The notes beneath the pieces were generated by a model. It made no database searches and was not told where the DNA came from. It saw only the letters and a program-made list of their open reading frames with translations. The translations under genes were made by a program, and so were the position numbers. Positions 1 through 18,694 of a stretch of DNA of 18,694 bases are shown here, one piece after another. Origin of the DNA: Azolla caroliniana (Eukaryota; Plantae; Polypodiophyta); assembly GCA_043228905.1 (NCBI GenBank), contig JBHGNT010000637.1:1-18694 (forward strand), given 5' to 3'. Each line of letters begins with the position of its first letter. Within the stretch, counting starts at the first letter, position 1.

Positions 1-1
1 A

Positions 2-1609
2 CACATTTCCGGGAAAGACAATGCCATGGCCGACATGCTTTCGAGGGCGCGATTCGACGACGAGGGCGGCATGGTTTCGGAGGATGAGGAAGTCGGCGTG
101 GACTTCTTCGAGGCGGCTTACGTAACAAACGAGGGGGGGAGCACTCCGGCGCTTAATGATTTCAACGAGAGCAAGTACGACGGGGAGTGGCTACAGATTG
201 GGGGATTCTTGAGGACGATGACGCCGGACGCGTCATGGACAAAGAACGAGGCCAACCGGATCCGGAAGAAAGCATACTGATTCTTTCTCCGAGACGGATA
301 CTTGTGGAAGCACCCGAAGAAGAGAAACAACATCCCGCTCCGAGTAGTGGCGATGGAGGAGGAACAGGAGGAGTTGCTGAAGGCCTACCACGACAGCCCC
401 TGGGCTGGACACCGTGGGACGTGGGCCATGTTCGAGAAACTAAAGGGGAAGTACTGGTGGCTGGGACTGTACCGGGACGTGCATCGGTTCGTGACAACTT
501 GTGAGAGCTGTCAAATACACTCCATAGTCCGACATCGGGACGAGCTTCACCCTACATACCCTCCGGTCATCCACTTCAAATGGATGGTAGATTTGGTGAC
601 GATGCCGATGGGCGTAGGGCAGATGCGATATCTGGTGCTGGCCCGGGAGGACCTGACGAACCAGGTGGAAGGCCGAGCCCTGTAGAACAAAACGACTGCG
701 GCCGTGTGTTGGTTCCTGATCGAGGACTTGATATGCCAATACGGGTGTGTCGGGAAGATCGTGGCTGACCGCGGGGAGTTGGACGCCGAAGAGGCCGAGG
801 AGCTGTTCGACCGGTTAGGGGTCAAGCTCTCGCTCACCACAACGTACAATCCGGAGGCGAACGGGAAGGTGGAGCGCGGACACGGACCGATCGTCAAAGC
901 GCTAGTTCGAGCGTGCGGAGGCCAGGTCGGGAACTGGCCACGACTGTTACCTTATGCCTTGTGGGCGGACCAGACAACGCACAGTTCGGTAACCGGGTTC
1001 ATGCCGTCAGAGCTCATGTTCGGACAGAAGCCGATCATGCCGATGGAACGGACGATCTCCTCTTGGGCGACAATGGACTGGAGAGACAAGATGAGCCGGG
1101 AAGAACTACTAGCGGCGCATATACGGCAGCTCGAGCGGAGGCCAGAGGACGTGGAACGAGCGACGGAGAGACTTCGGACGGCGAGGATGAGGAACAAAGC
1201 CCGGTTCGACCGAACGCACCGGCTCCGACCAAAGAAAATCGAGGAAGGCGACTGGGTGCTACTCTACGACAGTAGCCTCGACAACCAGCACCGGGCAACA
1301 CGGAAGTTTGCAAAGCGGTGGTTCGGGCCTTACGTGGTAACGAGCGCCAACGACAACGGGACGTATCACCTGGCGGAACTCGACGGTACGAGGATGGCGA
1401 TACCGGTAGCAGGGAAGCGGATCAAAGCGTTCAAGAAGCGCCACGACGGCGAACCGGATCTAAGAGGCCTAGACAGCGACGACGAACAGTCCGAAATGGA
1501 GGACGAACCGATGGACGAGGAACCGGAACCCGGACCGGTTTTCTCCAACCAGAACCCAATTTTGGCGCATACCGGTGGATGCGCAGTTAGGTGGGGGCGG
1601 ATGTCGTGA
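2..1609 (+). pseudogene. Gypsy A pol pseudogene (RNase H C-terminus, HHCC zinc finger, rve integrase core, acidic tail; no chromodomain)
   Basis: ORFs 26-280, 302-685 and 704-1609 are all in one frame, split by TGA 278-280 and TAG 683-685. Motifs: HISGKDNAMADMLSR, H-DSPWAG-H...C-ES-C, WMVDLV, IVADRG, YNPEANGKVER, KFAKRWFGPY. Confidence 0.93.
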
Positions 1610-5132: not shown

Positions 5133-6123
5133 AGGTGTGCAACACCAAACTTGGCCATGTTAAGGTGGATTTCTTACATCAAATCAATGAACCCAGAAGT
5201 CTGCCACATACCAGGAAAGAATAATGCCATGGCAGACATGCTATCAAGGGCAAGGTATGAAGGTGAAAGTGGCATGGTGTTAGAAGAAGAGGATGTTGCT
5301 CTCAATTTCTTGAAAACGGGCCAAGGCATATGTGGAGGAACGAGATATGCAACTGCTCAACGCCTTCAAAGAGAGCAAGTATGAAGGGGAGTGACTTCAC
5401 ACATGCGGGTTCTTGAGCTCAATGATAGCAAACATTTCATGGACAAAGGAGGTATGCTACGGGCATGACCATATGACATCCCGTGGTGAAAATTTACTGT
5501 AGTATTCTATACACGTGGATAAGTGTGAGGGTTAAACGAGAGTGTAAAGAATACTACAGTAAATTCTCACCATGGGATATTATATGGTCATGCCTGTAAC
5601 AAGGAAGCACAAAGGATCCAAAGAGAAGGCATACAAGTACTTCATGTAAGGAGAGTACCTCTAGAAGCACTAGAAGAGAAGGATGGTAACACCACAACGA
5701 GTGGTCATCAAGACCAGACAACATTAGTGTTTGAGTTCCACAAGAGTCCTTGGGCAAGCCATAGAGTGACATGGGAAAATTTTGAGAAGTCAAAAGAGAA
5801 GTATTGATGGTTGGGAATGTACAAGGATGTCGCCCATTTCATGGATACATGTGAAAGTTTCCAACTATATTCGAACATACGACATAGGGACAAGTTGCAC
5901 TTGACCTATCCACTCACCATACACTTCAAATGGTTGGTGGATCTGGTTTCAATGCCAAGGGGAGTGGGCCAAATGAAGTACCTCGTACTAGCAAAAGAGA
6001 ACCTAATGAACCAGGTAGAAGGGTGGGCCTTAGTGAAGAAGGCAACAACGGGAGTGTGCAAATTCTTACTCGAAGATGTGCATTTTCCGGTACGGATGTG
6101 TGGGAAAGATATTGGCAAACAGA
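5133..6123 (+). pseudogene. Gypsy C pol fragment, heavily degenerated homolog of Gypsy A pol (RNase H end to integrase N-half)
   Basis: CATPNLAMLRWISYIKSMNPEVCHIPGKNNAMADMLSRARYEGESGMVLEEEDV aligns with A's HISGKDNAMADMLSRARFDDEGGMVSEDEEV. RHRDKLHLTYPLTIHFKWLVDLVSMP aligns with RHRDELHPTYPPVIHFKWMVDLVTMP. Many stops and frameshifts; homology ends near 6123. Confidence 0.88.
5455..5601. mobile_element. 147-bp MITE-like hairpin element (60-bp TIRs, TG..CA ends, 5-bp TSD)
   Basis: 5455-5514 and the reverse complement of 5542-5601 match at 53/60 positions, with a 27-bp spacer. Flanks are AGGTA (5450-5454) and AGGAA (5602-5606). Removing it restores SWTKEEAQRI, homologous to SWTKNEANRI of Gypsy A. 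Confidence 0.9.
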
Positions 6124-6553: not shown

Positions 6554-6749
6554 TGCCTTGTGATAGATTCGGGCTTGCCCATGCAACTCCCCTCAACAAA
6601 GGTATCTTTCTTTGACTAGTCAAACACTCATGCCTTGGGATAGATTCGAGCTTGCCCAGGCATCTCCCCTCGACAAAGGCTTCTTTCTTCAACTAGTCAA
6701 ACATTCATGCCTTGGGATAGATTCGGGCTTGCCCATGCATCTCCCCTTG
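6554..6749. repeat. Tandem repeat, 77-bp unit x ~2.5
   Basis: TGCCTTG(G/T)GATAGATTCG(G/A)GCTTGCCCA(T/G)GCA.CTCCCCT starts at 6554, 6631 and 6708. Confidence 0.9.
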
Positions 6750-6774
6750 AGGCGAATTGTCGATTGTTCAATGT

Positions 6775-6932
6775 TCGACTAACCAAATTGTTGACTAGTC
6801 GAAGCCTTCGACTAGTGTGTTTGATTAAGCGAATCGTCGACTAGTCGAAGCCTTCGGCTAGTGTGTTCGATTCGGCGAATCGTTGACTAGAGCGCTCGAT
6901 AAGACGAAGCCCTCGACAAGTGCGCTCAACTA
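6775..6932. repeat. Palindrome-rich tandem repeat, 46-bp period, built on TCGACTAGT
   Basis: GACTAG units start at 6793, 6839 and 6885. ACTAGTCGAAG-C-CTTCGACTAGT (6794-6816) is a perfect inverted repeat. Confidence 0.85.
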
Positions 6933-7950: not shown

Positions 7951-8265
7951 TGTTGAGAATCAATCTCAACGTGGTCTAGTGTGTGAACTCACCTTGAGAG
8001 TGAAGAGACATTTCAACGGTCAAGAGTCACCATTATGTCACCACTTTGTATTCTAGCATTTAGTATGATTCATAGAATCATATTCTATGACACATAACTT
8101 ATGAGCTTTCACATTCCCCATGCTCCATGAGCCTTGTAGTTAATGAAGAGAGAGGGTGACTACATAAATCACCCTCCTCCCACCTTGTATCATGTTGAGT
8201 CTTTCTCCTTTGCTAATATACTTAACCTTGCGTATACTCTGTCTCTGTCTCTATCTCTGTCTCTG

Positions 8266-8297
<32 letters not shown>

Positions 8298-8366
8298 ATA
8301 CACACACATACACACACAGTTCACACCTATTCCGCTTCACAAGAATCCATCTCTTGATTCTTTACA
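7951..8366 (+). repeat. Copia 5' LTR (416 bp)
   Basis: TG..CA ends; direct repeat of 12992-13372; contains a (CTCTGT)n/(CT)n/(CA)n microsatellite at ~8236-8318. Confidence 0.97.
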
Positions 8367-8378
8367 TGGTATCAGAGC
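8367..8378 (+). promoter_or_regulatory. Primer binding site for initiator tRNA-Met
   Basis: TGGTATCAGAGC immediately follows the 5' LTR; this is the canonical plant tRNAiMet PBS. Confidence 0.96.
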
Positions 8379-8522
8379 GATTTGGTAGCTTGATCTAGCC
8401 CATTCGCCTCATCATGATCGTGTGTTGTGCTCCACGCCGACGACCAAGAACCAGCTCATCGCTATCGTAGCTTCGCTACATAGCTCGCATTCAAAGAGAG
8501 AAGAAGAAGAAGAATCGAAATA

Positions 8523-11500
8523 ATGAATACTCAAATGGGGAGCGCTCTCCCTACCGAGAAGTTGGATCGAAACAACTTCGCATCTTGGGAGTACAAGATG
8601 CACCAATACCTTGTCGGACAAGGCTATTGGAGCTACATCAAAGGAGCGCATGAAGACCGACCCGCCGAAGCGGCTCCCGGATACGCAACATGGGAGCAAG
8701 CCGCGTGATGTATTGTTTGGCAACATGTGTTCACGACCACATGCTCGGTTACATTCGAGAAGCCAAGTTGCCGAAGGAAGCGTGGGAAAATCTATGAAAG
8801 ATTTTCGCCGCCAACACGACCGCGAGGAAGCTTCAACTCCGCCAAGAGTTGAACAACATTCAACAAAGGGACATGTCCATCACGACATATACCTTGAAGA
8901 TCAAGGAGCTTTGCGACTCGCTCGACTCAATAAGCGTAAGTATAGGTGATGATGAGATGGTGCAAATATGCCTCGGTGGCCTCGCACCGCGGTTCGGCGC
9001 GATGCGAACCGCCGTTCTAGCACGGGAGAAATCTCCCTCCTTCTTCAAGCTCCAATCAATGCTATTGGTCAAAGAAAACCATGTGCATACAAGGAGCAAT
9101 GAGTCGGAAGGCCACATGCTCTACACGCACTCTAATGGAGGAAGAGGACGCGGACGAGCGAGAGGCCGATTTGGCCAAGGACAAGGCGGATGAGGTCCGA
9201 CCTACGATAACAACTCCCAACTTCGGCCGCAAAACGGAGGCCAACGAGGAACCTTCGCAAGAAGGGGGAGCTTCCACTCCGGCCGAGCCGTCAAAACGCA
9301 ACCGAATGCGAATATTGCGGAAAGCTCGGCAACCACGAAGAAGAGTGTCGAAAGAAGATGTGTGAATCGGCTTCCACAAGCCGACAACTCACGAATTACG
9401 CGCACAATTCCGACTACGAAGAGTGTAGCGGAATGTATGGGCACAACTCCGACTACGAAGATCGTGGCAGAATGTATGCATGGAACTCCGACCGTGGCGG
9501 AATGTTCATGATGAAACATAGAGCAAACTCTATGTCGGCCTCTACCTCAACTAATGCCCTCAATCCGGAGGACGTATGGTTTGTAGACTCCGGAGCCTCA
9601 AATCATATGACATCCCATAAAGAATGGTTTCTCGATCTTCGAGAGCCGGAGCGACCCGGTTATGTTGAAACCGGAGATGACACTACGCACCCGATTCGGC
9701 ACATCGGCAATGTTCCGTTCGGCGAAAGAGGTAAGCAAACATACATTAAAAATGTCTTGCATGTTCCCACCATCACAAAGAATTTGGTCTCGGTCGGCCA
9801 AATGGTTGAGCAAGGGATGCAAGTACGATTCGACCAAGAAGGGTGCTTCATCGAAAAAGAAGGCCGAATCATCACACGCGGAAGAAGAGAGGGCTGAATG
9901 TTCATTCTCGATTCACACGAGATGAAATCTGCCATGTTCGGGAAAAGCACGAAAGCCGACTCCAACATAGAGCTATGGCATAAGCGAATCGGCCACATCA
10001 ATCTCAACAAACTCAAAGCAATGAAGTCGAAAGGAGTCATCATCGGACTCCCGACATTCAAAGAGAAGGAGATTGAAGGTGTATGTGAAGCGTGCCAATT
10101 TGGCAAGCAACATCGACACCCATTCCCGAAGGAGCGGAATGTGAGCAAAGGCGTACTCGACGTAATTCATTCCGATGTATGGGGTTCGGCCCAAACGACG
10201 ACATTCGGCGGATGCCAGTATTACGTGCTCTTCATCGACGACTTTTCTAGGCACACTTGGATCTACCCGATGCGGCAAAAGAGCGAAGTGTTCGGACACT
10301 TCCAAAAGTTCAAGAATGAAGTCGAGAAAGCCACGAGCCGACATGTACGATGTCTTCGATCAGATGGCGGCAAGGAGTACTTCTCGGATGATTTCACGGC
10401 GTATCTCCGAAAGGAAGGAATTCGGCGAGAATTCACTTGCCGACACACTCCACAACAAAACGGAGTAGCCGAGCGCAAAAATCGGCACATCCTCGAAGTA
10501 GCATGGGCCATGATGAACGAGAAGCATATGCCCAAGTCATATTGGGCCGAAGCGGCAAATACGGCTGTCTACCTAATGAATTGGTGCACAACATCCGGCG
10601 TGCACGAGGTCACTCCGCACGAAAGATTCTTCAGAAAAAGCTGCACCTATCACATGTTCGGGTATTCGGCTCCATTGCGTACGTGCACATCCCCGACGAG
10701 AAACGTCAAAAGCTCGACCCGAAGTCAGAGAAATGTATCCTCGTAGGATACTCACTAGAGCAAAAGGGGTACAAGTGCTACAACCCCTCAACTCGAAAAT
10801 CTCAGGTAAGTTGAGACATCGTCTTTGACGAGTCAGCATCCTGGTACGCACCAGAGACAACTTCGCCTCTGACTCCGCTCGACCCAGAATCCACCGAACA
10901 AGAGATAGAGAATGAAGATCATCTTACGCGCATGTTCGAAGAAAGTCCGATCACGACCCGATTAAGCGGACCACAAGAGCCTTTGAGCAATCAAAGCACA
11001 TCACGGCCTAGCCCGAAGATGGACAAAGGCAAGGCGAAAATGGCGGAATATGAAGATGATTGCTTCATTGACGATGAGTCGACTCACTCACTCGACAGTG
11101 AGTTCGGCGGCTTCGAGGTACCAATCGGTGCTAAGAAAGCCCTCATTTCTGCAAATGAAAAGCTCCACCGATCCACTCGTGAAAAGAACCCCATAAGCCG
11201 ATTCGGCTACAATGATTACATGGCGTACCATTACGCCTTTATGATGAAGGTAGCGACAGTACGGGAGCTGGAAACCTTTTCGGAAGCCGCGAAGGACCCG
11301 CGATGGATCACACAAAAAGGCGATCGGATGCAGATGGATCTACAAAGTGAAGTACAACGCGGATGGTTCCGTCAACCGCTACAAAGCTCGACTCGTAGCG
11401 AAAGGATACGCTCAGACACATGGCGTCGACTACGAAGAGACCTTTGCCCCGGTGGCAAAGATGACGACGGTGCGAACCGTAATTGCGTTTGCCGCAGCGA

Positions 11501-12765
11501 AAGGGTGGCACCTCCATCAAATGGACGTCAAGAACGCCTTTCTACAAGGCGAATTAGAAGAGGAGGTGTACATGATCCAACCACCCGGCTTCAACTCGAG
11601 CACTCATCCAAAAGCCGTATGCCGACTCAAGAAGCCACTCTACGGCCTCAAGCAAGCACCGCGTGCTTGGCATTCGAAGATAACGCAATATCTTCATCAA
11701 ATTGGGTTTCGTATGTCAAAATCAGACAACTCCCTCTACATAAGAAGCGATTCCGCAAGTCCGATCGTCATCATCTTATATGTGGATGACCTAGTCATTG
11801 GAGGTGAGCATCTCGTCGAAATCAATAAGGTCAAATCCCTCCTTTCCGACAAGTTCGAGATGACGGACATGAAGGAGCTCCACTACTTCCTCGGCATCGA
11901 GGTAATTCAAACTCCGGCCGGAATCATGATCTCTCAACGGCACTACATCCTCAACCTGTTATACAAGTTCGGGATGGCTGAGTGCAAATCCGTGGCAACC
12001 CCACTCGATCGTAATCTCAAACTAGATGCGCACTCCAGCACCAAAGCGTGTGAGCCGACTCAGTATCGGCAACTCATCGGGAGTCTCATCTACCTCATGA
12101 TCACTCAACCCGATCTCAGTTATCCGGTCGGTCTCCTTAGCCAATTCATGCAAACACCGCGTGATACTCACTTGGATGGCGCTAAGCGAGTTCTACGATA
12201 CGTGAGCGGCACAATGGATTATGGCATCCTCTACAAGACCGCGATGCCAATACGACTCGAGGGGTACACAGACGCAGATTGGGTCGGCTACAAAGCTGAT
12301 AGAAGATCAACCTCCGGATTTGTTTTCTCCCTCGGTAGCGGAGCAATATCCTGGAGTAGCAAGAAGCAGCCCATCGTCGCTCTTTCGAGTACGGAGGCGG
12401 AATACAAGGGCGCAGACGTAGCTACGTGTGAAGTCGTATGGCTCAAGAGGATTTTGAAGGATCTGGGCGTACCCATCAAGGGTCCGACTTCCCTTTACTG
12501 CGACAACATGAGCAGTATCTATCTGGCTCGGAACCCGGTGTTCCACGCGCAGACAAAGCACATTGAACTACACTATCACTTCATTCGAGAGCGCGTTCTG
12601 GCTGGCGATGTCGACCTACAACACATAAGCACCAATCTTCAAACGGTTGACATCTTCACTAAAGCCTTAGGGGCCGACAAGCTATGACAATTCATGACCA
12701 ATCTCGGATTAACGATCCCTGACCTGCCAAGCTTGAGGGGGAGTACGCAAGACACTACGCAATAA
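8523..12765 (+). pseudogene. Copia gag-pol polyprotein pseudogene
   Basis: gag KLDRNNFASWEYKM; zinc knuckle CEYCGKLGNHEEEC (9307-9348); protease WFVDSGASNHMT; integrase LWHKRIGH...CEACQFGK, HSDVWG, LRSDGGKEY, PQQNGVAER; RT RYKARLVAKG, MDVKNAFL, LYGLKQAPRAW, YVDD; RNase H YTDADW, SSTEAEY, YCDN, KHIELHYHF. Stops at 8795, 9895 and 12685; frameshifts near 8705, 9200, 10635 and 11310. Natural stop TAA at 12763-12765. Confidence 0.96.
9397..9504 (+). repeat. In-frame 39-bp tandem repeat between zinc knuckle and protease
   Basis: Encodes YAHNSDYEECSGM / YGHNSDYEDRGRM / YAWNSD---RGGM, with units at 9397, 9436 and 9475. Confidence 0.9.
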
Positions 12766-12982
12766 CGCGTGGATCGCAACCACGCAACGAAGCAGCGAAG
12801 AGCCGATCTACCACGCAAAGCCGCGAAGAAAGACGCAAACCGAAGCACAGACTTCGCAACTACGCACAATGCAAGCAGGAGCACGGATTCCGCAACTCCG
12901 CATAAAGCGAGTCGACGCGGACTCCCGAACGTGAATTAAAGCGGATTTCGGATACCATCTGAAACCGACCCGACTTGAGCTT

Positions 12983-12991
12983 GAGGGGGCG
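12983..12991 (+). promoter_or_regulatory. Polypurine tract of the Copia element
   Basis: GAGGGGGCG directly precedes the 3' LTR TG at 12992. Confidence 0.9.
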
Positions 12992-13372
12992 TGTTGAGAA
13001 TCAAGCTCAACGTGGTCTAGTGTGTGAACTCACCTTGAGAGTGAAGAGACACTTCAACGGTCAAGAGTCACCATTATGTCACCACTTTGTATTCTAACAT
13101 TTAGTATGATTCATAGAATTATATGACACATAACTTATGAGCTTTCACATTCCCCATGCTCCATGAGCCTTGTAGTTAATGAAGAGAGAGGGTGACTACA
13201 TAAAGCACCCTCCTCCCACCTTGTATCATGTTGAGTCTTTCTCCTTTGCTAATATACTTAACCTTGCGTATACTCTGTCTCTGTCTCTGTCTCTGTCTCT
13301 CTCATACACACACATACACACACAATTCACACCTATTCCGCTTCACAAGAATCCATCTCTTGATTCTTTACA
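12992..13372 (+). repeat. Copia 3' LTR (381 bp)
   Basis: Matches the 5' LTR apart from about 6 substitutions, a 5-bp indel and a 30-bp shorter microsatellite. Confidence 0.97.
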
Positions 13373-14289
13373 TGCTTACATGATTACATGTTTTGCCCCT
13401 TGATGTATTGTAGTAGAGTCGATTGTCAAGTGTTCCCTCTCTCAAATTCCATTACCATGGAGTTGTGATCGACCTTTAGCGCGTTTGTGCCTCTGGAACT
13501 CAACACAATGTTTCACATACTCATATGTGTCTTTAAACATTGTGGAACACCATAAACCTAGCTAGAGGATCTTACATGTGGTGATGTTAGGTCTAATGCA
13601 TGTACCTCAATCACCAATATAATCTAATGCTCTAATATGCATCATTATAAGATATGTTCTTTGCTTTGTAGAGGTGTCCTAGTGTCATGATGAAAAACTC
13701 ACAATGGTGTAAGACTTATCTAGCAATCTCTTTACATAGTTGATAAAGGAACAAGAGCCCTTAGGTTAGGGCTCAAACAAGAGAAATGGTGCTTCATTAT
13801 CAATGCTAGAGGGGCCTTCACCACTAGTTAGGTGAGAGAAATAGTATGCCAATACGTGATCCCTCACTTTCTATACAAAGATTTTTAAACGAAACTCCAA
13901 TAGAGGCTGACAGGATATCCTATTCACAACATCGATCTTGTTCATCAATTATAAAAGTGATTGGTGATCCACACAGAAAAAGAAACATTAAGCCTATTAA
14001 TAGGTAGAGTTGAAACTTTTTGAGGTTGTATATCATCGGTAATGTTTACTTTTTACGATGTATGCCCGAAAAGGTTGAGCAAGAGAGTGAGCGTAACGCA
14101 CGAACAACACAACAACGTCTGCCCCCGATCCCCACAATAAAAAGCCCCTTCGTCTTGGTACTTACATACACCACACGCCATCCATTCATCATGTACATGT
14201 TAGAATAAGACTAGTAATAATAATGATAATAAGAAACCAGTAGCAATCATGTTTGTCTATATCTCTTGTTTCTTTGGTTTGCTTCTTCT

Positions 14290-14380: not shown

Positions 14381-14484
14381 AAAATGCCCTGCCCTGCCCT
14401 GCACCTGTTTCATCTTTCCTTCTTGCTTCCTTACATAATAAAACTTGCAGTGAGGCAGCAGCAGGAGCAGAAGCAGCGTGCGTG

Positions 14485-14886
14485 ATGCATCTATGGCGGG
14501 GCATCGGGAGTAAGAAGAAGCTTCTCCTTCTTCCTCTTAGCAGCGGGGAGAGGGCCGGCACTGCCATCACTAGGCTCTTCTCACAGCAAGCATTGTCGTC
14601 ATTATCATCATCATCATCATCGGCAGCCAAACCCATGAGAGAGGAGGAGGGGGAGAACCTCCGAGAAGCATCAGCGCAGATGCCTGCATCGGCCCTTAGT
14701 GGGCCATCCATCGGCCGCCGCTTCTACAAGCGCGCCTATGCCGCCAGAGCTCCTGCTTCTCCGGAGGATGAGGATGGCTACGTGGTAATGCTGGATAATC
14801 GTATTCTGAAGACCCCCTCCAAGAAGCAGCTCAAGGTTCCCTCATTTGCCCTCGCTCATGCCATCGCAGCCGAGTGGGAGTATCAG
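14485..14886 (+). CDS. ATP12: ATP synthase mitochondrial F1 complex assembly factor 2, exon 1 (transit peptide plus N-terminal domain)
   Basis: ATG at 14485; Arg/Leu/Ser-rich presequence; GRRFYK, VMLDNRILKTP, VPSFALAHAIAAEWEYQ are ATP12-family motifs. Donor CAG|GT at 14886/14887, phase 0. Confidence 0.93.
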
Positions 14887-15012
14887 GTTCCTCTCTACCT
14901 ACACATTTTTGCATTTAGAATGATATGTATGCTTGCATGCAAAAGGTAATGCTCTAATCACTTGTGAGTGTGATGCTGTCTCCTCATGGGCATTGTCGTT
15001 TTCTTTTTGTAG

Positions 15013-15175
15013 GATCAAGAAGCCATTAGACCCTTCACCATGCCTTTAATGAAGCTCACATCCACTGCCATTGATAAAGTGCCAAAAGAAAGGGAGAAAA
15101 TTATAAAGAACCTGCTAGAGTTTTTCCACACAGATGCTGTCTGTTGTCGTGATAGAGATGATTCTCCTCTTGGTG
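15013..15175 (+). CDS. ATP12: ATP12 exon 2 (not in the ORF track)
   Basis: Acceptor TTTTTGTAG| at 15012; translates DQEAIRPFTMPLMKLTSTAIDKVPKEREKIIKNLLEFFHTDAVCCRDRDDSPLG; donor G|GTATGT at 15175/15176, phase 1. Confidence 0.93.
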
Positions 15176-15596
15176 GTATGTTATTAAACATAACTTTTGG
15201 AATGTAACACTGTGATACATGTTTGTACTTTTAGTTGATTACAGCCCTATTCGCTGTTTTTTTTTACTGCCATTATCGAGAAGAATTATCATATCCCATT
15301 AGATCGAATTCACATACATAATTTGAAGGGGAATATAAAGCACATAGATGGTATACTTTTTTGTAGGGGAAAAGAAGACTTTTGATTTGCTATTTACCTT
15401 AAAACCAATAGCAGTCAAGGTGTTAGAGGTTTATGGTGAATAAAGCTACATATTTCTGAACAGTTTGTGAGGCGTATTTTAAGGATTTTTTATTCGTTTT
15501 TACATCAACGCACCAAAGCAGAGTAGTCTGTAGCTCTTTTTTCATGAAGACTACATCAACATGCTGTAACATGTGATTCATGAAATGCTGTTGCAG

Positions 15597-15874
15597 AATT
15601 GCAAGCGGATGTATTGAATCCTTTGTTGGATTGGATAGAGAAAGAGTTTGGTCATAGACCAAGTCATTCAACAAATATTCTGGTTGATAACCAACCCGAT
15701 GAAGTTGTGGAGGCATTGGAAAAAGCCTTAAGGAAAGCCAATAATTGGCAATTAACAGCAGTGGATGCCCTCTCAGCAGCATCAAAGTCCCTCGTAGTTG
15801 CTATGGCTGTCGCCCGTGGCAAGCTAAGCATAGAAGAAGCGATCCAAGTGATTCGGCTCGAGGAAGACTTCCAG
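15597..15874 (+). CDS. ATP12: ATP12 exon 3; final exon(s) outside the window
   Basis: Acceptor TTGCAG| at 15596 joins exon 2 in frame (G+AA = Glu). Translates LQADVLNPLLDWIEKEFG...AASKSLVVAMA...IRLEEDFQ; donor CAG|GTAAAT at 15874/15875. Confidence 0.93.
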
Positions 15875-16864
15875 GTAAATTGATACAGATAATGTTAAAA
15901 TTCATTAGAAACACTGTACATATTTTGTGATTTTCAAGAGAAAACACCATGTGTCTTTTGTGATTTAATTACAAGAAATTACCAAACTGGTTTGTTTCTA
16001 TTGCTTCTTAGAGCGAAACTAGATTGAAATTTGTTTTTTCCAAAACATTTATTTAAGACTTTCTAGTATTTTGACAGGTTTCAAAAGTTTGTTTAATGGA
16101 TTTAGTAGGCTTTTCATAGAGAAATAATATAAAAATATGCATATCTTTTTGAATATGAACTCCCCATCTCTTTGGTATGATCATCAGCCTAGGTATTCCA
16201 CCGTTTCTCTGCATAGATGTCTTCCATCACTGCCCAACTCCATGTTTTGCTGGCACAACACTGCATACTAACATTTTTGGTACATTTTGTTTCAGTAAAA
16301 AATGCGAGGTATCTTCCTTCTGTTGCTGTTTTTTCTTTTCTTTTGGGGAATCCTTTTATAAATATTTAAAATATCTTTTGTTTATATTTATTGGTCCATG
16401 TGAGTATGAATAGAATTCTATTGTTTCAGAGTAGGGAACATGTTTCTCTTGTTTCCTTCTCCTCTGTTTTCTGACATACTAGTAATATGCATGATGCTAT
16501 CCCTTATTTTTTCCGTAAGCTAATGGGTTTTCCTAAAACACCCCCAATTTTATTGGATGTGATGATCACATCCCATCAGAAGCAGGCTCATAAAAACTAG
16601 GGTTTTTAATAATAATGTTTTTTTTATGGTATATTAAATACACACCAATTTAGTCAATATATTCAATGTTGTAGATAACTGACCTTAGAAGTTCAGCAAC
16701 TTAGCTTTTGAAATAGATCCCGAACTTTCACTCTTTATTTACTGAAGTCTTTTCGGTGTTATGGCACTTCGATTGATTCATTTATGTTTGCTTCAGTATT
16801 TGATTACATTAGCTGAAACAAGACCAATCATAGAAGACATTTCTAATTTGTATAACCTGTGTGT

Positions 16865-17475: not shown

Positions 17476-18591
17476 TTAGCTCCAGAACGGCAGTCCAACA
17501 TTGAGTCGATCAAGGAGCTGATCAATGGCTTGCCTTGGAAGTGGCTTAGTAAATAAATCAGCCACATTTTCTTGAGTAGGGCAATATGCCAAGTTGATGA
17601 CTTGTGATTTCACTAAGTCACGAACAAAATGGTAGTGCACTTCGATGTGTTTTGTTCTACCATGAAATGCTGAGCTATGTGCCAAGGCACGTGCACTTTG
17701 GCTGTCGGTGAAAACTGCAATAGGAGAGGCTTGCAAAACACCAATGTGAGAAAACAATTGCATCAACCATAGCAACTCACAGCAAGTATCCAAGTAGGCG
17801 CGATATTCAGCTTCCGTCGATGAAGTAGAAACTGAGTTTTGCTTCTTCGATTTCCAAGAAATCAAGCCTGAACCTAACATAAAACAATAGCCAGATGTGG
17901 ACCTTCTAGAATCAATATCACCTGCCCAATCAGCATCTGAGTAGCCAACAAGCTCAATGCCGCCTCTAAAAGATAGACCATAGTCGAGTGTGTTGGCCAA
18001 ATACCGAAGAACTCGAATAGCTGCTTGCCAATGACTTTGTCTTGGAGCAGTTGAGAATTGGCTGAGAATACTCACGCTATAGGACAAATCAGGCCTGGTA
18101 TAAGTTAAGTGAAGAAGGGACCCGATTAATCTCCTATATTTCGTGATATCCTCAAATATGGGAGAATCGTCTTCACGAGATAGCTTTGAGTTTGGATCCA
18201 TTGGACAGGAGAGTGGCTTGCAATTTGTCATGCTATAGGTCTCAAGGAGCTGCCTGAGATACCTATGTTGGCTGAGAAAGATACCACCATGTGATTGATA
18301 GACCTCCATACCTATGAAATAATGGAGAAGTCCTAGATCAGTCATTTCAAAGGTTGTTTTGAGGTCAGCGCGGACCTCCTCGATTTTAGATGCAAGGGAC
18401 CCTGTAATTAGAAGGTCGTCAACATATAATATGATCAAGCAAAGCAAATTATCTTGGGAAAAAACATAGAGATTGCTGTCAGCATTACAGTTTTGAAACC
18501 CAAGAGAAAGAAAGAAGCTATCAATTTTGTCATGCCAAGCTTTGGGAGCTTGCTTTAAGCCATACAAGGCTTTGTGTAACTTGTAGACCAT
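17476..18591 (-). CDS. Copia reverse transcriptase C-half and RNase H (371 uninterrupted codons, partial)
   Basis: LYGLKQAPKAW, ILYVDDLLI, FEMTDLG, TRPDLSYSV, GYSDADWAGD, SSTEAEY, TDSQSA, TKHIEVHYHF, ADLFTKPL. Confidence 0.93.
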   Translation of the reverse strand: MVYKLHKALYGLKQAPKAWHDKIDSFFLSLGFQNCNADSNLYVFSQDNLLCLIILYVDDLLITGSLASKIEEVRADLKTTFEMTDLGLLHYFIGMEVYQSHGGIFLSQHRYLRQLLETYSMTNCKPLSCPMDPNSKLSREDDSPIFEDITKYRRLIGSLLHLTYTRPDLSYSVSILSQFSTAPRQSHWQAAIRVLRYLANTLDYGLSFRGGIELVGYSDADWAGDIDSRRSTSGYCFMLGSGLISWKSKKQNSVSTSSTEAEYRAYLDTCCELLWLMQLFSHIGVLQASPIAVFTDSQSARALAHSSAFHGRTKHIEVHYHFVRDLVKSQVINLAYCPTQENVADLFTKPLPRQAIDQLLDRLNVGLPFWS

Positions 18592-18694
18592 GTTTTTCTG
18601 CTCTAAAATCTCGAAAATCTCTTGATCTCAAACAAGCTTGTGAGATTAGAGGCAGTAGTAGTCATGTTTGCACTTTACAATTTAATAAAAATTT

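Follow-up and report, generated by a model that had tools for sequence, protein, structure and literature searches.

The hairpin element and its host fragment

The window, i.e., the whole stretch of 18,694 nucleotides of Azolla caroliniana DNA that was analysed, contains an element of 147 bp with 60-bp arms and a 27-nt loop, inserted into a degenerate Gypsy pol fragment (Table 1). The arms (5455-5514 and 5542-5601) are complementary at 53 of 60 positions, and the differences between them consist of six transitions and one transversion. The element ends with TGCTAC..GTAACA and is flanked by AGGTA and AGGAA, which was the sole match of more than 4 bases with at most one mismatch when boundary shifts from -3 to +3 and target-site duplication (TSD) lengths of 2-10 were compared. 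The 60-bp inverted arms with six transitions among seven differences, the ends of the form TG(T/C)TAC..GTAACA and the 5-bp TSD, all described by an earlier sequence-only reading, were confirmed by the arm alignment, by this boundary comparison and by the relatives listed below.

Table 1. Features of the hairpin locus (positions in the window; LTR numbering from the U3 start of the parent family)
Feature	Position	Strand	Basis
Left TSD copy, AGGTA	5450..5454	+	102 of 113 family members have a 5-bp TSD with one mismatch or none
LTR nucleotides 1-97 (U3 start, first DNA after the PPT primer)	5455..5551	+	94% identity to LTR 1-97 of full-length copy L061
LTR 51-60, 5' half of natural stem, predicted self-priming site	5505..5514	+	Single-stranded DNA fold of LTR 1-97 pairs the 3' end with 51-60
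27-nt loop, LTR 61-87	5515..5541	+	Alignment to LTR
LTR 88-97, 3' half of natural stem; fold-back point 94-97, start of PPT-like purine tract (LTR 92-104)	5542..5551	+	Junction present 52 times genome-wide
LTR 1-50, inverted copy giving second U3 end (..GTAACA)	5552..5601	-	Alignment to LTR
Right TSD copy, AGGAA	5602..5606	+	Flank comparison
Host: degenerate Gypsy pol fragment (before integrase zinc finger)	5205..6058	+	Aligns to window 1-708

By alignment with the long terminal repeat (LTR) of the parent family, the element is identified as LTR 1-97 joined to 50-1 in inverted orientation, and the turn lies at a natural 10-bp stem. This stem (LTR 51-60 with 88-97, paired at 9 of 10 positions) is among the three strongest inverted repeats of LTR 1-220, and in the predicted DNA fold of LTR 1-97 the last base pairs within the 51-60 half. 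The single transversion, at arm position 55, corresponds to a mismatch already contained in the stem of the parent LTR itself, and 9 of the 12 ungapped copies of 147 bp retain it without change in either half of the stem; as judged from the sequences, it is an inherited stem mismatch and not a mutation. The predicted RNA fold of the element has a free energy of -86.1 kcal/mol (z -14.2), and none of 200 shuffled sequences was equally stable. The miRNA-precursor-like stem-loop suggested earlier is thus real in silico, and the assembled contigs from four RNA runs (one of them probably DNA) included none over the flanks of the hairpin locus.

The left junction of the element was crossed by short-read contigs in three of four runs (X1, X2, X6) and the right junction in two of the four (X1, X2), indicating that the element is not an assembly artefact. 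An empty-site joint was not found among the joints listed for four DNA runs (assembled contigs). At 5620-5622 one base of the window is absent from contigs of three runs, at the position of the 1-base gap in the host alignment.

A paralog of the host fragment is located at window 1-708 and includes the Pfam domain Integrase_H2C2 at 281-685. Upon alignment of the two, the host showed gaps of 86 and 66, or a total of 152 bases, equal to the 147-bp element plus one TSD of 5 bases. The flanks translate as ..SWTKE / EAQRI.., and the paralog reads ..SWTKNEANRI... The proposed restoration of the Gypsy frame on removal of the element therefore stands for the local register, but not for the fragment as a whole, which is degenerate elsewhere (an upstream stop and a downstream 1-base gap in the alignment to 1-708). 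The host fragment is unrelated to the LTR of the parent family.

A stretch of contig C16 (G000:C16:11.785-11.804 Mb) carries the same insertion and matches the window at about 98% identity, so that both insertions were counted as one event. The C16 stretch is likely an alternative haplotype of the window; it has about 3.7 kb of extra sequence near window position 126. Other features of the window are tandem repeats of 77 bp and 46 bp with small palindromes downstream of the host fragment (6554-6890), a Copia element with near-identical LTRs and a simple-repeat tract within (7951-13374), an ATP12 chaperone gene (14383-15883; Pfam PF07542 on the first open reading frame), and another Copia reverse transcriptase (RT) fragment on the minus strand (17476-18627).

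The parent chromovirus and the census of inverted U3 ends

The arm of the hairpin corresponds to the first 60 bases of a chromovirus LTR, and its 18-base terminus has 2,229 exact matches in the genome. Of 886 candidates from a DNA search with the element, 40 were scored, giving 95 matches. Twelve regions with same-strand pairs of termini were taken from the genome, and these are LTR retrotransposons of one family. The family has an LTR of about 456 bp, a total length of 7.0 kb and 5-bp TSDs; its 3' LTR is preceded by the polypurine tract (PPT) and then TA before the TG start, and its 5' LTR is followed by TGGTATCA. One copy, L061, codes for gag, protease, RT, RNase H, integrase and chromodomain. 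The order gag-PR-RT-RH-IN with a C-terminal chromodomain, together with LTRs, primer-binding site (PBS), PPT and 5-bp TSD, identifies it as a chromoviral Ty3/Gypsy element. TSDs of 5 bp are reported for 93.4% of plant LTR elements (PMC6317226). The parent LTR (L061:1056-1511 and relatives) ends with TG..TA (U5 end TAATA) and not TG..CA, the boundary being confirmed by the TSDs. A PPT-like purine tract lies in U3 at nucleotides 92-104 of the L061 LTR and starts at the commonest fold-back point. Two copies of the family (L070, L071) have extra LTRs, inverted internal pieces and tandem arrangements.

The terminal inverted repeat (TIR) of the hairpin was thus found to match the start of an LTR. 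Of the two origins offered by the sequence-only reading, the joining of two LTR ends head-to-head by a retrotransposon integrase is supported, with the specification that both ends are U3 ends, that the loop is LTR 61-87 and that the fold-back lies at a natural stem. The other, a non-autonomous Ginger-like MITE, does not agree with arms that are the start of a chromovirus LTR with more than 2,000 exact copies, nor with the lack of a fixed length. The expected long partner with the same TIRs was also not found: the long elements are direct-repeat retrotransposons with RT, and among the first 100 of the 2,229 terminus matches (contig C1), pairs within 30 kb comprised 25 on the same strand, many at 5.9-7.6 kb, and only two convergent ones, at 192 and 201 bp, leaving no convergent pair at 0.3-30 kb.

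Genome search for a strict pattern, two inverted U3 ends 56-356 bp apart, yielded 110 elements, including some small-contig duplicates. The corresponding U5-U5 pattern gave no match genome-wide (control, 1). Compared with 882 PPT-U3 junctions, which represent ordinary 3' LTRs, there is about one fold-back element per eight ordinary 3' LTRs; the U5-PBS junctions numbered 365. For detailed analysis a total of 119 loci were taken, leaving out seven presumed duplicates, and subtraction of five without an end pair and one C16 duplicate left 113, a set enriched for the 147-bp class by the first query. The hairpin is therefore not single copy. A 5-bp TSD was perfect in 76 of these 113 elements and had one mismatch in 26 (102 in total); one element had a perfect 4-bp and one a perfect 6-bp TSD, and a clean 5-bp TSD was absent in 11. 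The TSDs represent 70 different 5-mers among 77, with 43% GC and no fixed motif.

The 113 elements are mosaics of LTR pieces of 61-423 bp, 63 of them with a single turn, and one element of 51 bp has a TSD matching at 4 of 5 positions. The 147-bp class is the mode, yet it accounts for only about 10 of the 110 strict elements. Its junction, 97/50, occurs 52 times in the genome, at least one occurrence (L174) being unrelated. The minimum arm length expected from the integrase footprint was not observed, arms being as short as about 9 bases in L190 and L192; a further short match, L191, was rejected as a fold-back and is an ordinary mutated LTR. The LTR start of a Copia family related to the Copia element of the window gave one inverted match (L166/L197; G000:C11:1877845-1878066), composed of LTR ~1-143 and inverted 77-1 after a PPT-like tract, with no 5' partner or TSD within 9.3 kb. 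A literature search of titles and abstract openings, covering few subscription journals and not Repbase, found no description of integrated U3-U3 fold-back elements.

Turns, arms and hybrids with cDNA

The turns within the elements are preferentially located at short inverted matches: microhomology of at least 3 was found in 34% of 44 junction classes, against 7-11% at random. Of nine internal LTR starts, one of which is no true start, five follow a TA (one case being ambiguous); this dinucleotide lies between PPT and LTR and is missing at integrated ends. Among the 42 multi-segment elements, nine clean cases had fold-back polarity at both ends, none had reverse polarity at both ends and one was mixed, leaving out two further double cases that are poorly aligned. 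Since the two turns differ in five of the nine clean composites, these five are not derivable from one simple element. The raw polarity count of 45:6 (fold-back to reverse) is overstated, because a plain indel in a simple element scores as fold-back about two times in three. Reverse polarity was found in four elements (L007, L099, L109 and L113), and the junctions of L106 and L131 lie inside spacer-less palindromes; for these six, priming between two strands fits better than fold-back. Non-LTR sequence is included in L146 (172 bp, inverted and internal) and L147 (PPT plus upstream bases, also internal), and the composite hairpin L155 (G000:C18:9686001-9686300) contains about 2.5 plant telomere repeats, possibly filler at a repaired break.

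When the arms of 51 single-turn elements were compared with the reference copy, 87 differences were common to both arms of an element, against 35 on permutation (maximum 51 in 2,000 permutations). Subfamily markers agree between arms in 49 of 51 and 48 of 49 cases, marker 19 being the one that differs in 2 of the 51. The 147-bp class (14 elements) includes six haplotypes, four of which were also found among 35 ordinary LTRs, and one haplotype is common to seven of the 14, among which a small subfamily may have copied itself. In its 12 ungapped copies only one of 25 arm-asymmetric differences is common to copies, and this is a CpG transition. Because the arms share both LTR-subfamily and rare variants, and because the 147-bp copies come from several subfamilies, the copies very probably arise independently, each hairpin having a single LTR as its own fresh template. 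Copying between arms once the element is inserted could account for part of the concordance. A rare variant carried on both arms of L012 has only one other match in the genome, itself a fold-back fragment; its donor LTR was not found in the genome search.

Later change was also detected. L136 and L158 occupy the same insertion site on two contigs and differ in their interiors, and L158 also repeats flank sequence. L129, considered as an independent crossover, was rejected and is likely a loop inversion. Since hairpins change after insertion in these cases, length diversity alone is no proof of independent origin.

Inspection of 19 of the 52 places with the 97/50 junction, with long flanks, showed hybrids. 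L171 is a full element with identical LTRs. Its U5 end keeps TT, the dinucleotide that this element has between U5 and PBS, and next come LTR 56-97 and inverted 60-1, with a perfect TSD. The hairpin thus supplies the integrated end beyond an unprocessed U5 end, and L171 has become a complete retrotransposon with 60-bp inverted U3 sequences at its two ends. The hairpin and both LTRs of L171 carry G83, a variant found in four of 113 copies examined, three of them in L171 itself. In L177, L179 and L017, a hairpin is joined to a U5 end together with some internal sequence of the parent family, and the TSD matches at 5/5, 4/5 and 5/5 positions, respectively. Another hybrid, L173, is without TSD, and L170 has lost its left end. 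Seven junction loci (L005, L022, L029, L176, L180, L183 and L184) are cut short against unrelated sequence and are uninformative either way. These hybrids suggest that, in vivo, the two ends paired by the integrase need not come from one molecule. Poor use of the U5 end on account of its terminal TA is unsupported, given that U5 ends with perfect TSDs are present both in ordinary elements and in two of the hybrids, L017 and L177.

Origin of the hairpins and comparison with known systems

An origin from LTR U3 and insertion by a retrotransposon integrase are almost certain. On the sequence evidence the hairpin is probably a by-product of reverse transcription inserted by the integrase of the family itself, and we lean towards its entering the reaction in trans, as a separate molecule. 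Plus-strand DNA primed at the PPT would stall or be displaced while still early in U3; in this hairpin the point is 94-97, where the PPT-like purine tract (LTR 92-104) begins, and this tract may itself cause the stall. The 3' end of the plus strand would then turn back through pairing of a short inverted repeat (51-60 with 88-97) and be extended by reverse transcriptase to the start, giving a hairpin with an open end that resembles the normal U3 end of cDNA. Such hairpins would be accepted by the integrase as separate substrates, filling one DNA site of the integration complex or both, and its normal 5-bp staggered cut would follow. Repair by the host would join the halves, annealing of shared arms giving simple elements such as 5455-5601 and end joining giving composite elements and hairpin-plus-cDNA hybrids; each copy would be a likely dead end, and not the template of the next. 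The evidence for this course is all genomic, the cDNA intermediates being inferred from the insertions. Precedents are known for each step: in Ty3 the PPT is primed repeatedly and plus-strand strong-stop DNA builds up as a dead end (PMC5371799); minus-strand strong-stop DNA of HIV-1 self-primes (PMC4668388); and donors with only one U3 end are used by RSV integrase for concerted integration (PMC3579926).

The main rival in our ranking, though an unlikely one, is a cis variant, in which template switching, either by fold-back plus PPT re-priming or by plus strands priming each other, forms one double-stranded palindrome with two U3 ends that is inserted whole. It would readily explain the four elements of reverse polarity, two of which (L007, L113) have an internal TA, and the spacer-less junctions of L106 and L131, and L171 could be one molecule lengthened by end-to-end jumps. 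Against it, the polarity of the double-turn elements is 9 to 0, and the telomere-repeat filler of L155 suggests a joined break. The stiffness of DNA limits the bending of short duplexes, and the 51- and 61-bp elements with TSD would probably be too short for both ends of one duplex to be bent into a single complex. Collapse after insertion, in which LTR insertions or two trans-inserted U3 ends of cDNA were shortened by template switching during replication or by deletion, is very improbable; later change is indeed seen in L136/L158 and L129, and long-armed cases such as L157 and L080 are in its favour, but the right end of a normal LTR is U5 and cannot give a clean TSD beside a second U3 end, no convergent pairs at 0.3-30 kb are present among the C1 matches listed, and the unprocessed internal TA and TT dinucleotides point to ends formed at the cDNA stage.

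Propagation of one or a few founder hairpins as an LTR-derived MITE, by cut-and-paste or re-transcription, would account for the 147-bp mode, for the 52 occurrences of one junction and for the haplotype of seven of the 14 copies in that class. This is very improbable, given that the class is a minor part of the strict set, that its six haplotypes follow LTR subfamilies with no shared asymmetric changes beyond one CpG transition, and that the hairpin is without PBS or PPT and its junction is also found in cDNA hybrids. A non-autonomous DNA transposon of the Ginger or GingerRoot type with a transposase of its own is extremely improbable. Its TGTTA..TAACA ends agree with the TGTNR termini, and 5-bp TSDs are known for TDD-4/5 (PMC2836005), but these ends are the LTR start, the only convergent pairs within 30 kb among the C1 matches are the two of 192 and 201 bp (the 25 same-strand pairs including a cluster at 5.9-7.6 kb), and the diverse 5-bp TSDs differ from the 4-bp CCGG/CCGT of Ginger1 and the 6 bp of GingerRoot (PMC2836005, PMC6839031).

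With an origin as a fold-back by-product of reverse transcription, the hairpin is likely no miniature DNA transposon, only a mimic of one, and the fold-back hairpins likely form a frequent, dead-end by-product class of a chromovirus. Tentatively, plus-strand fold-back hairpins may serve regularly in vivo as decoys for the integrase of an LTR retrotransposon, with about one insertion in ten having a hairpin in place of one cDNA end or of both. If so, a pseudo-MITE class is made without any DNA transposase, retroelement sequence gains terminal inverted repeats in one step (as in L171), a concrete route is given for the 'reverse evolution' by which Gypsy elements are proposed to have turned into Ginger-type DNA transposons (Bao et al., PMC2836005), and new small-RNA hairpin loci are steadily supplied. 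An LTR retrotransposon can repeatedly give rise to MITE-like TIR elements that have TG..CA ends with 5-bp TSDs, and entries of such build in repeat libraries, unclassified or filed as Ginger-like non-autonomous DNA elements, may be misfiled. The approximately 100 copies are a fossil record of plus-strand stall points in a plant retrotransposon and offer a first step, open to testing, by which LTR architecture could become TIR architecture.

MITEs are short, non-coding elements of many copies with TIRs and a TSD of constant length, and TRIMs have direct terminal repeats with PBS and PPT. The hairpins resemble MITEs in TIRs, constant TSD length and copy number, but differ in the lack of uniform length and founder descent (51-423 bp, 44 junction classes, haplotypes following LTR subfamilies). 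With TRIMs they share the TSD of a retro-type integrase, but have only inverted U3 pieces in place of direct repeats with PBS and PPT. The likeness to a miRNA precursor concerns the stable predicted stem-loop (z -14.2). By analogy, the snap-back defective genomes of RNA viruses arise when the polymerase turns back on its own product and gives two identical ends; the hairpins here are DNA, integrated and likely unable to replicate again. The strong-stop DNA of Ty3 (PMC5371799) and HIV-1 (PMC4668388) is similar in being abortive and in accumulating in particles or folding back and self-priming, but is described there as unintegrated, whereas the plus-strand-type fold-backs here appear integrated with a normal TSD.

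The likeness to Ginger elements lies in TGTNR ends, long inverted repeats and integrase-type chemistry. Ginger1 has TIRs of 40-270 bp, a range that includes the 60-bp arms, and its termini agree with the TGTTA of the hairpin, but its 4-bp CCGG/CCGT TSD is different from the unspecific 5-bp TSDs found here; Ginger2/TDD elements have 4-bp TSDs in AT-rich RTATAY sites, and only TDD-4/5, with 5 bp, equal the hairpin in TSD length, the TSDs here being 43% GC without fixed motif (PMC2836005). GingerRoot, with a 6-bp TSD, TIRs of 100-150 bp and a length of 3.9-12.9 kb (PMC6839031), differs from the hairpin family. All these groups are described as kilobase elements with their own transposase, and the hairpins have no such partner or fixed structure. 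Finally, the parent family shares with plant chromoviruses (Neumann et al. 2019, PMC6317226) the chromodomain after the integrase, the PBS start TGGTATCA, the PPT and the 5-bp TSD, whereas the hairpin consists of two inverted U3 ends without U5, PBS, PPT or coding sequence; both its sequence and its TSD derive from this parent chromovirus family.
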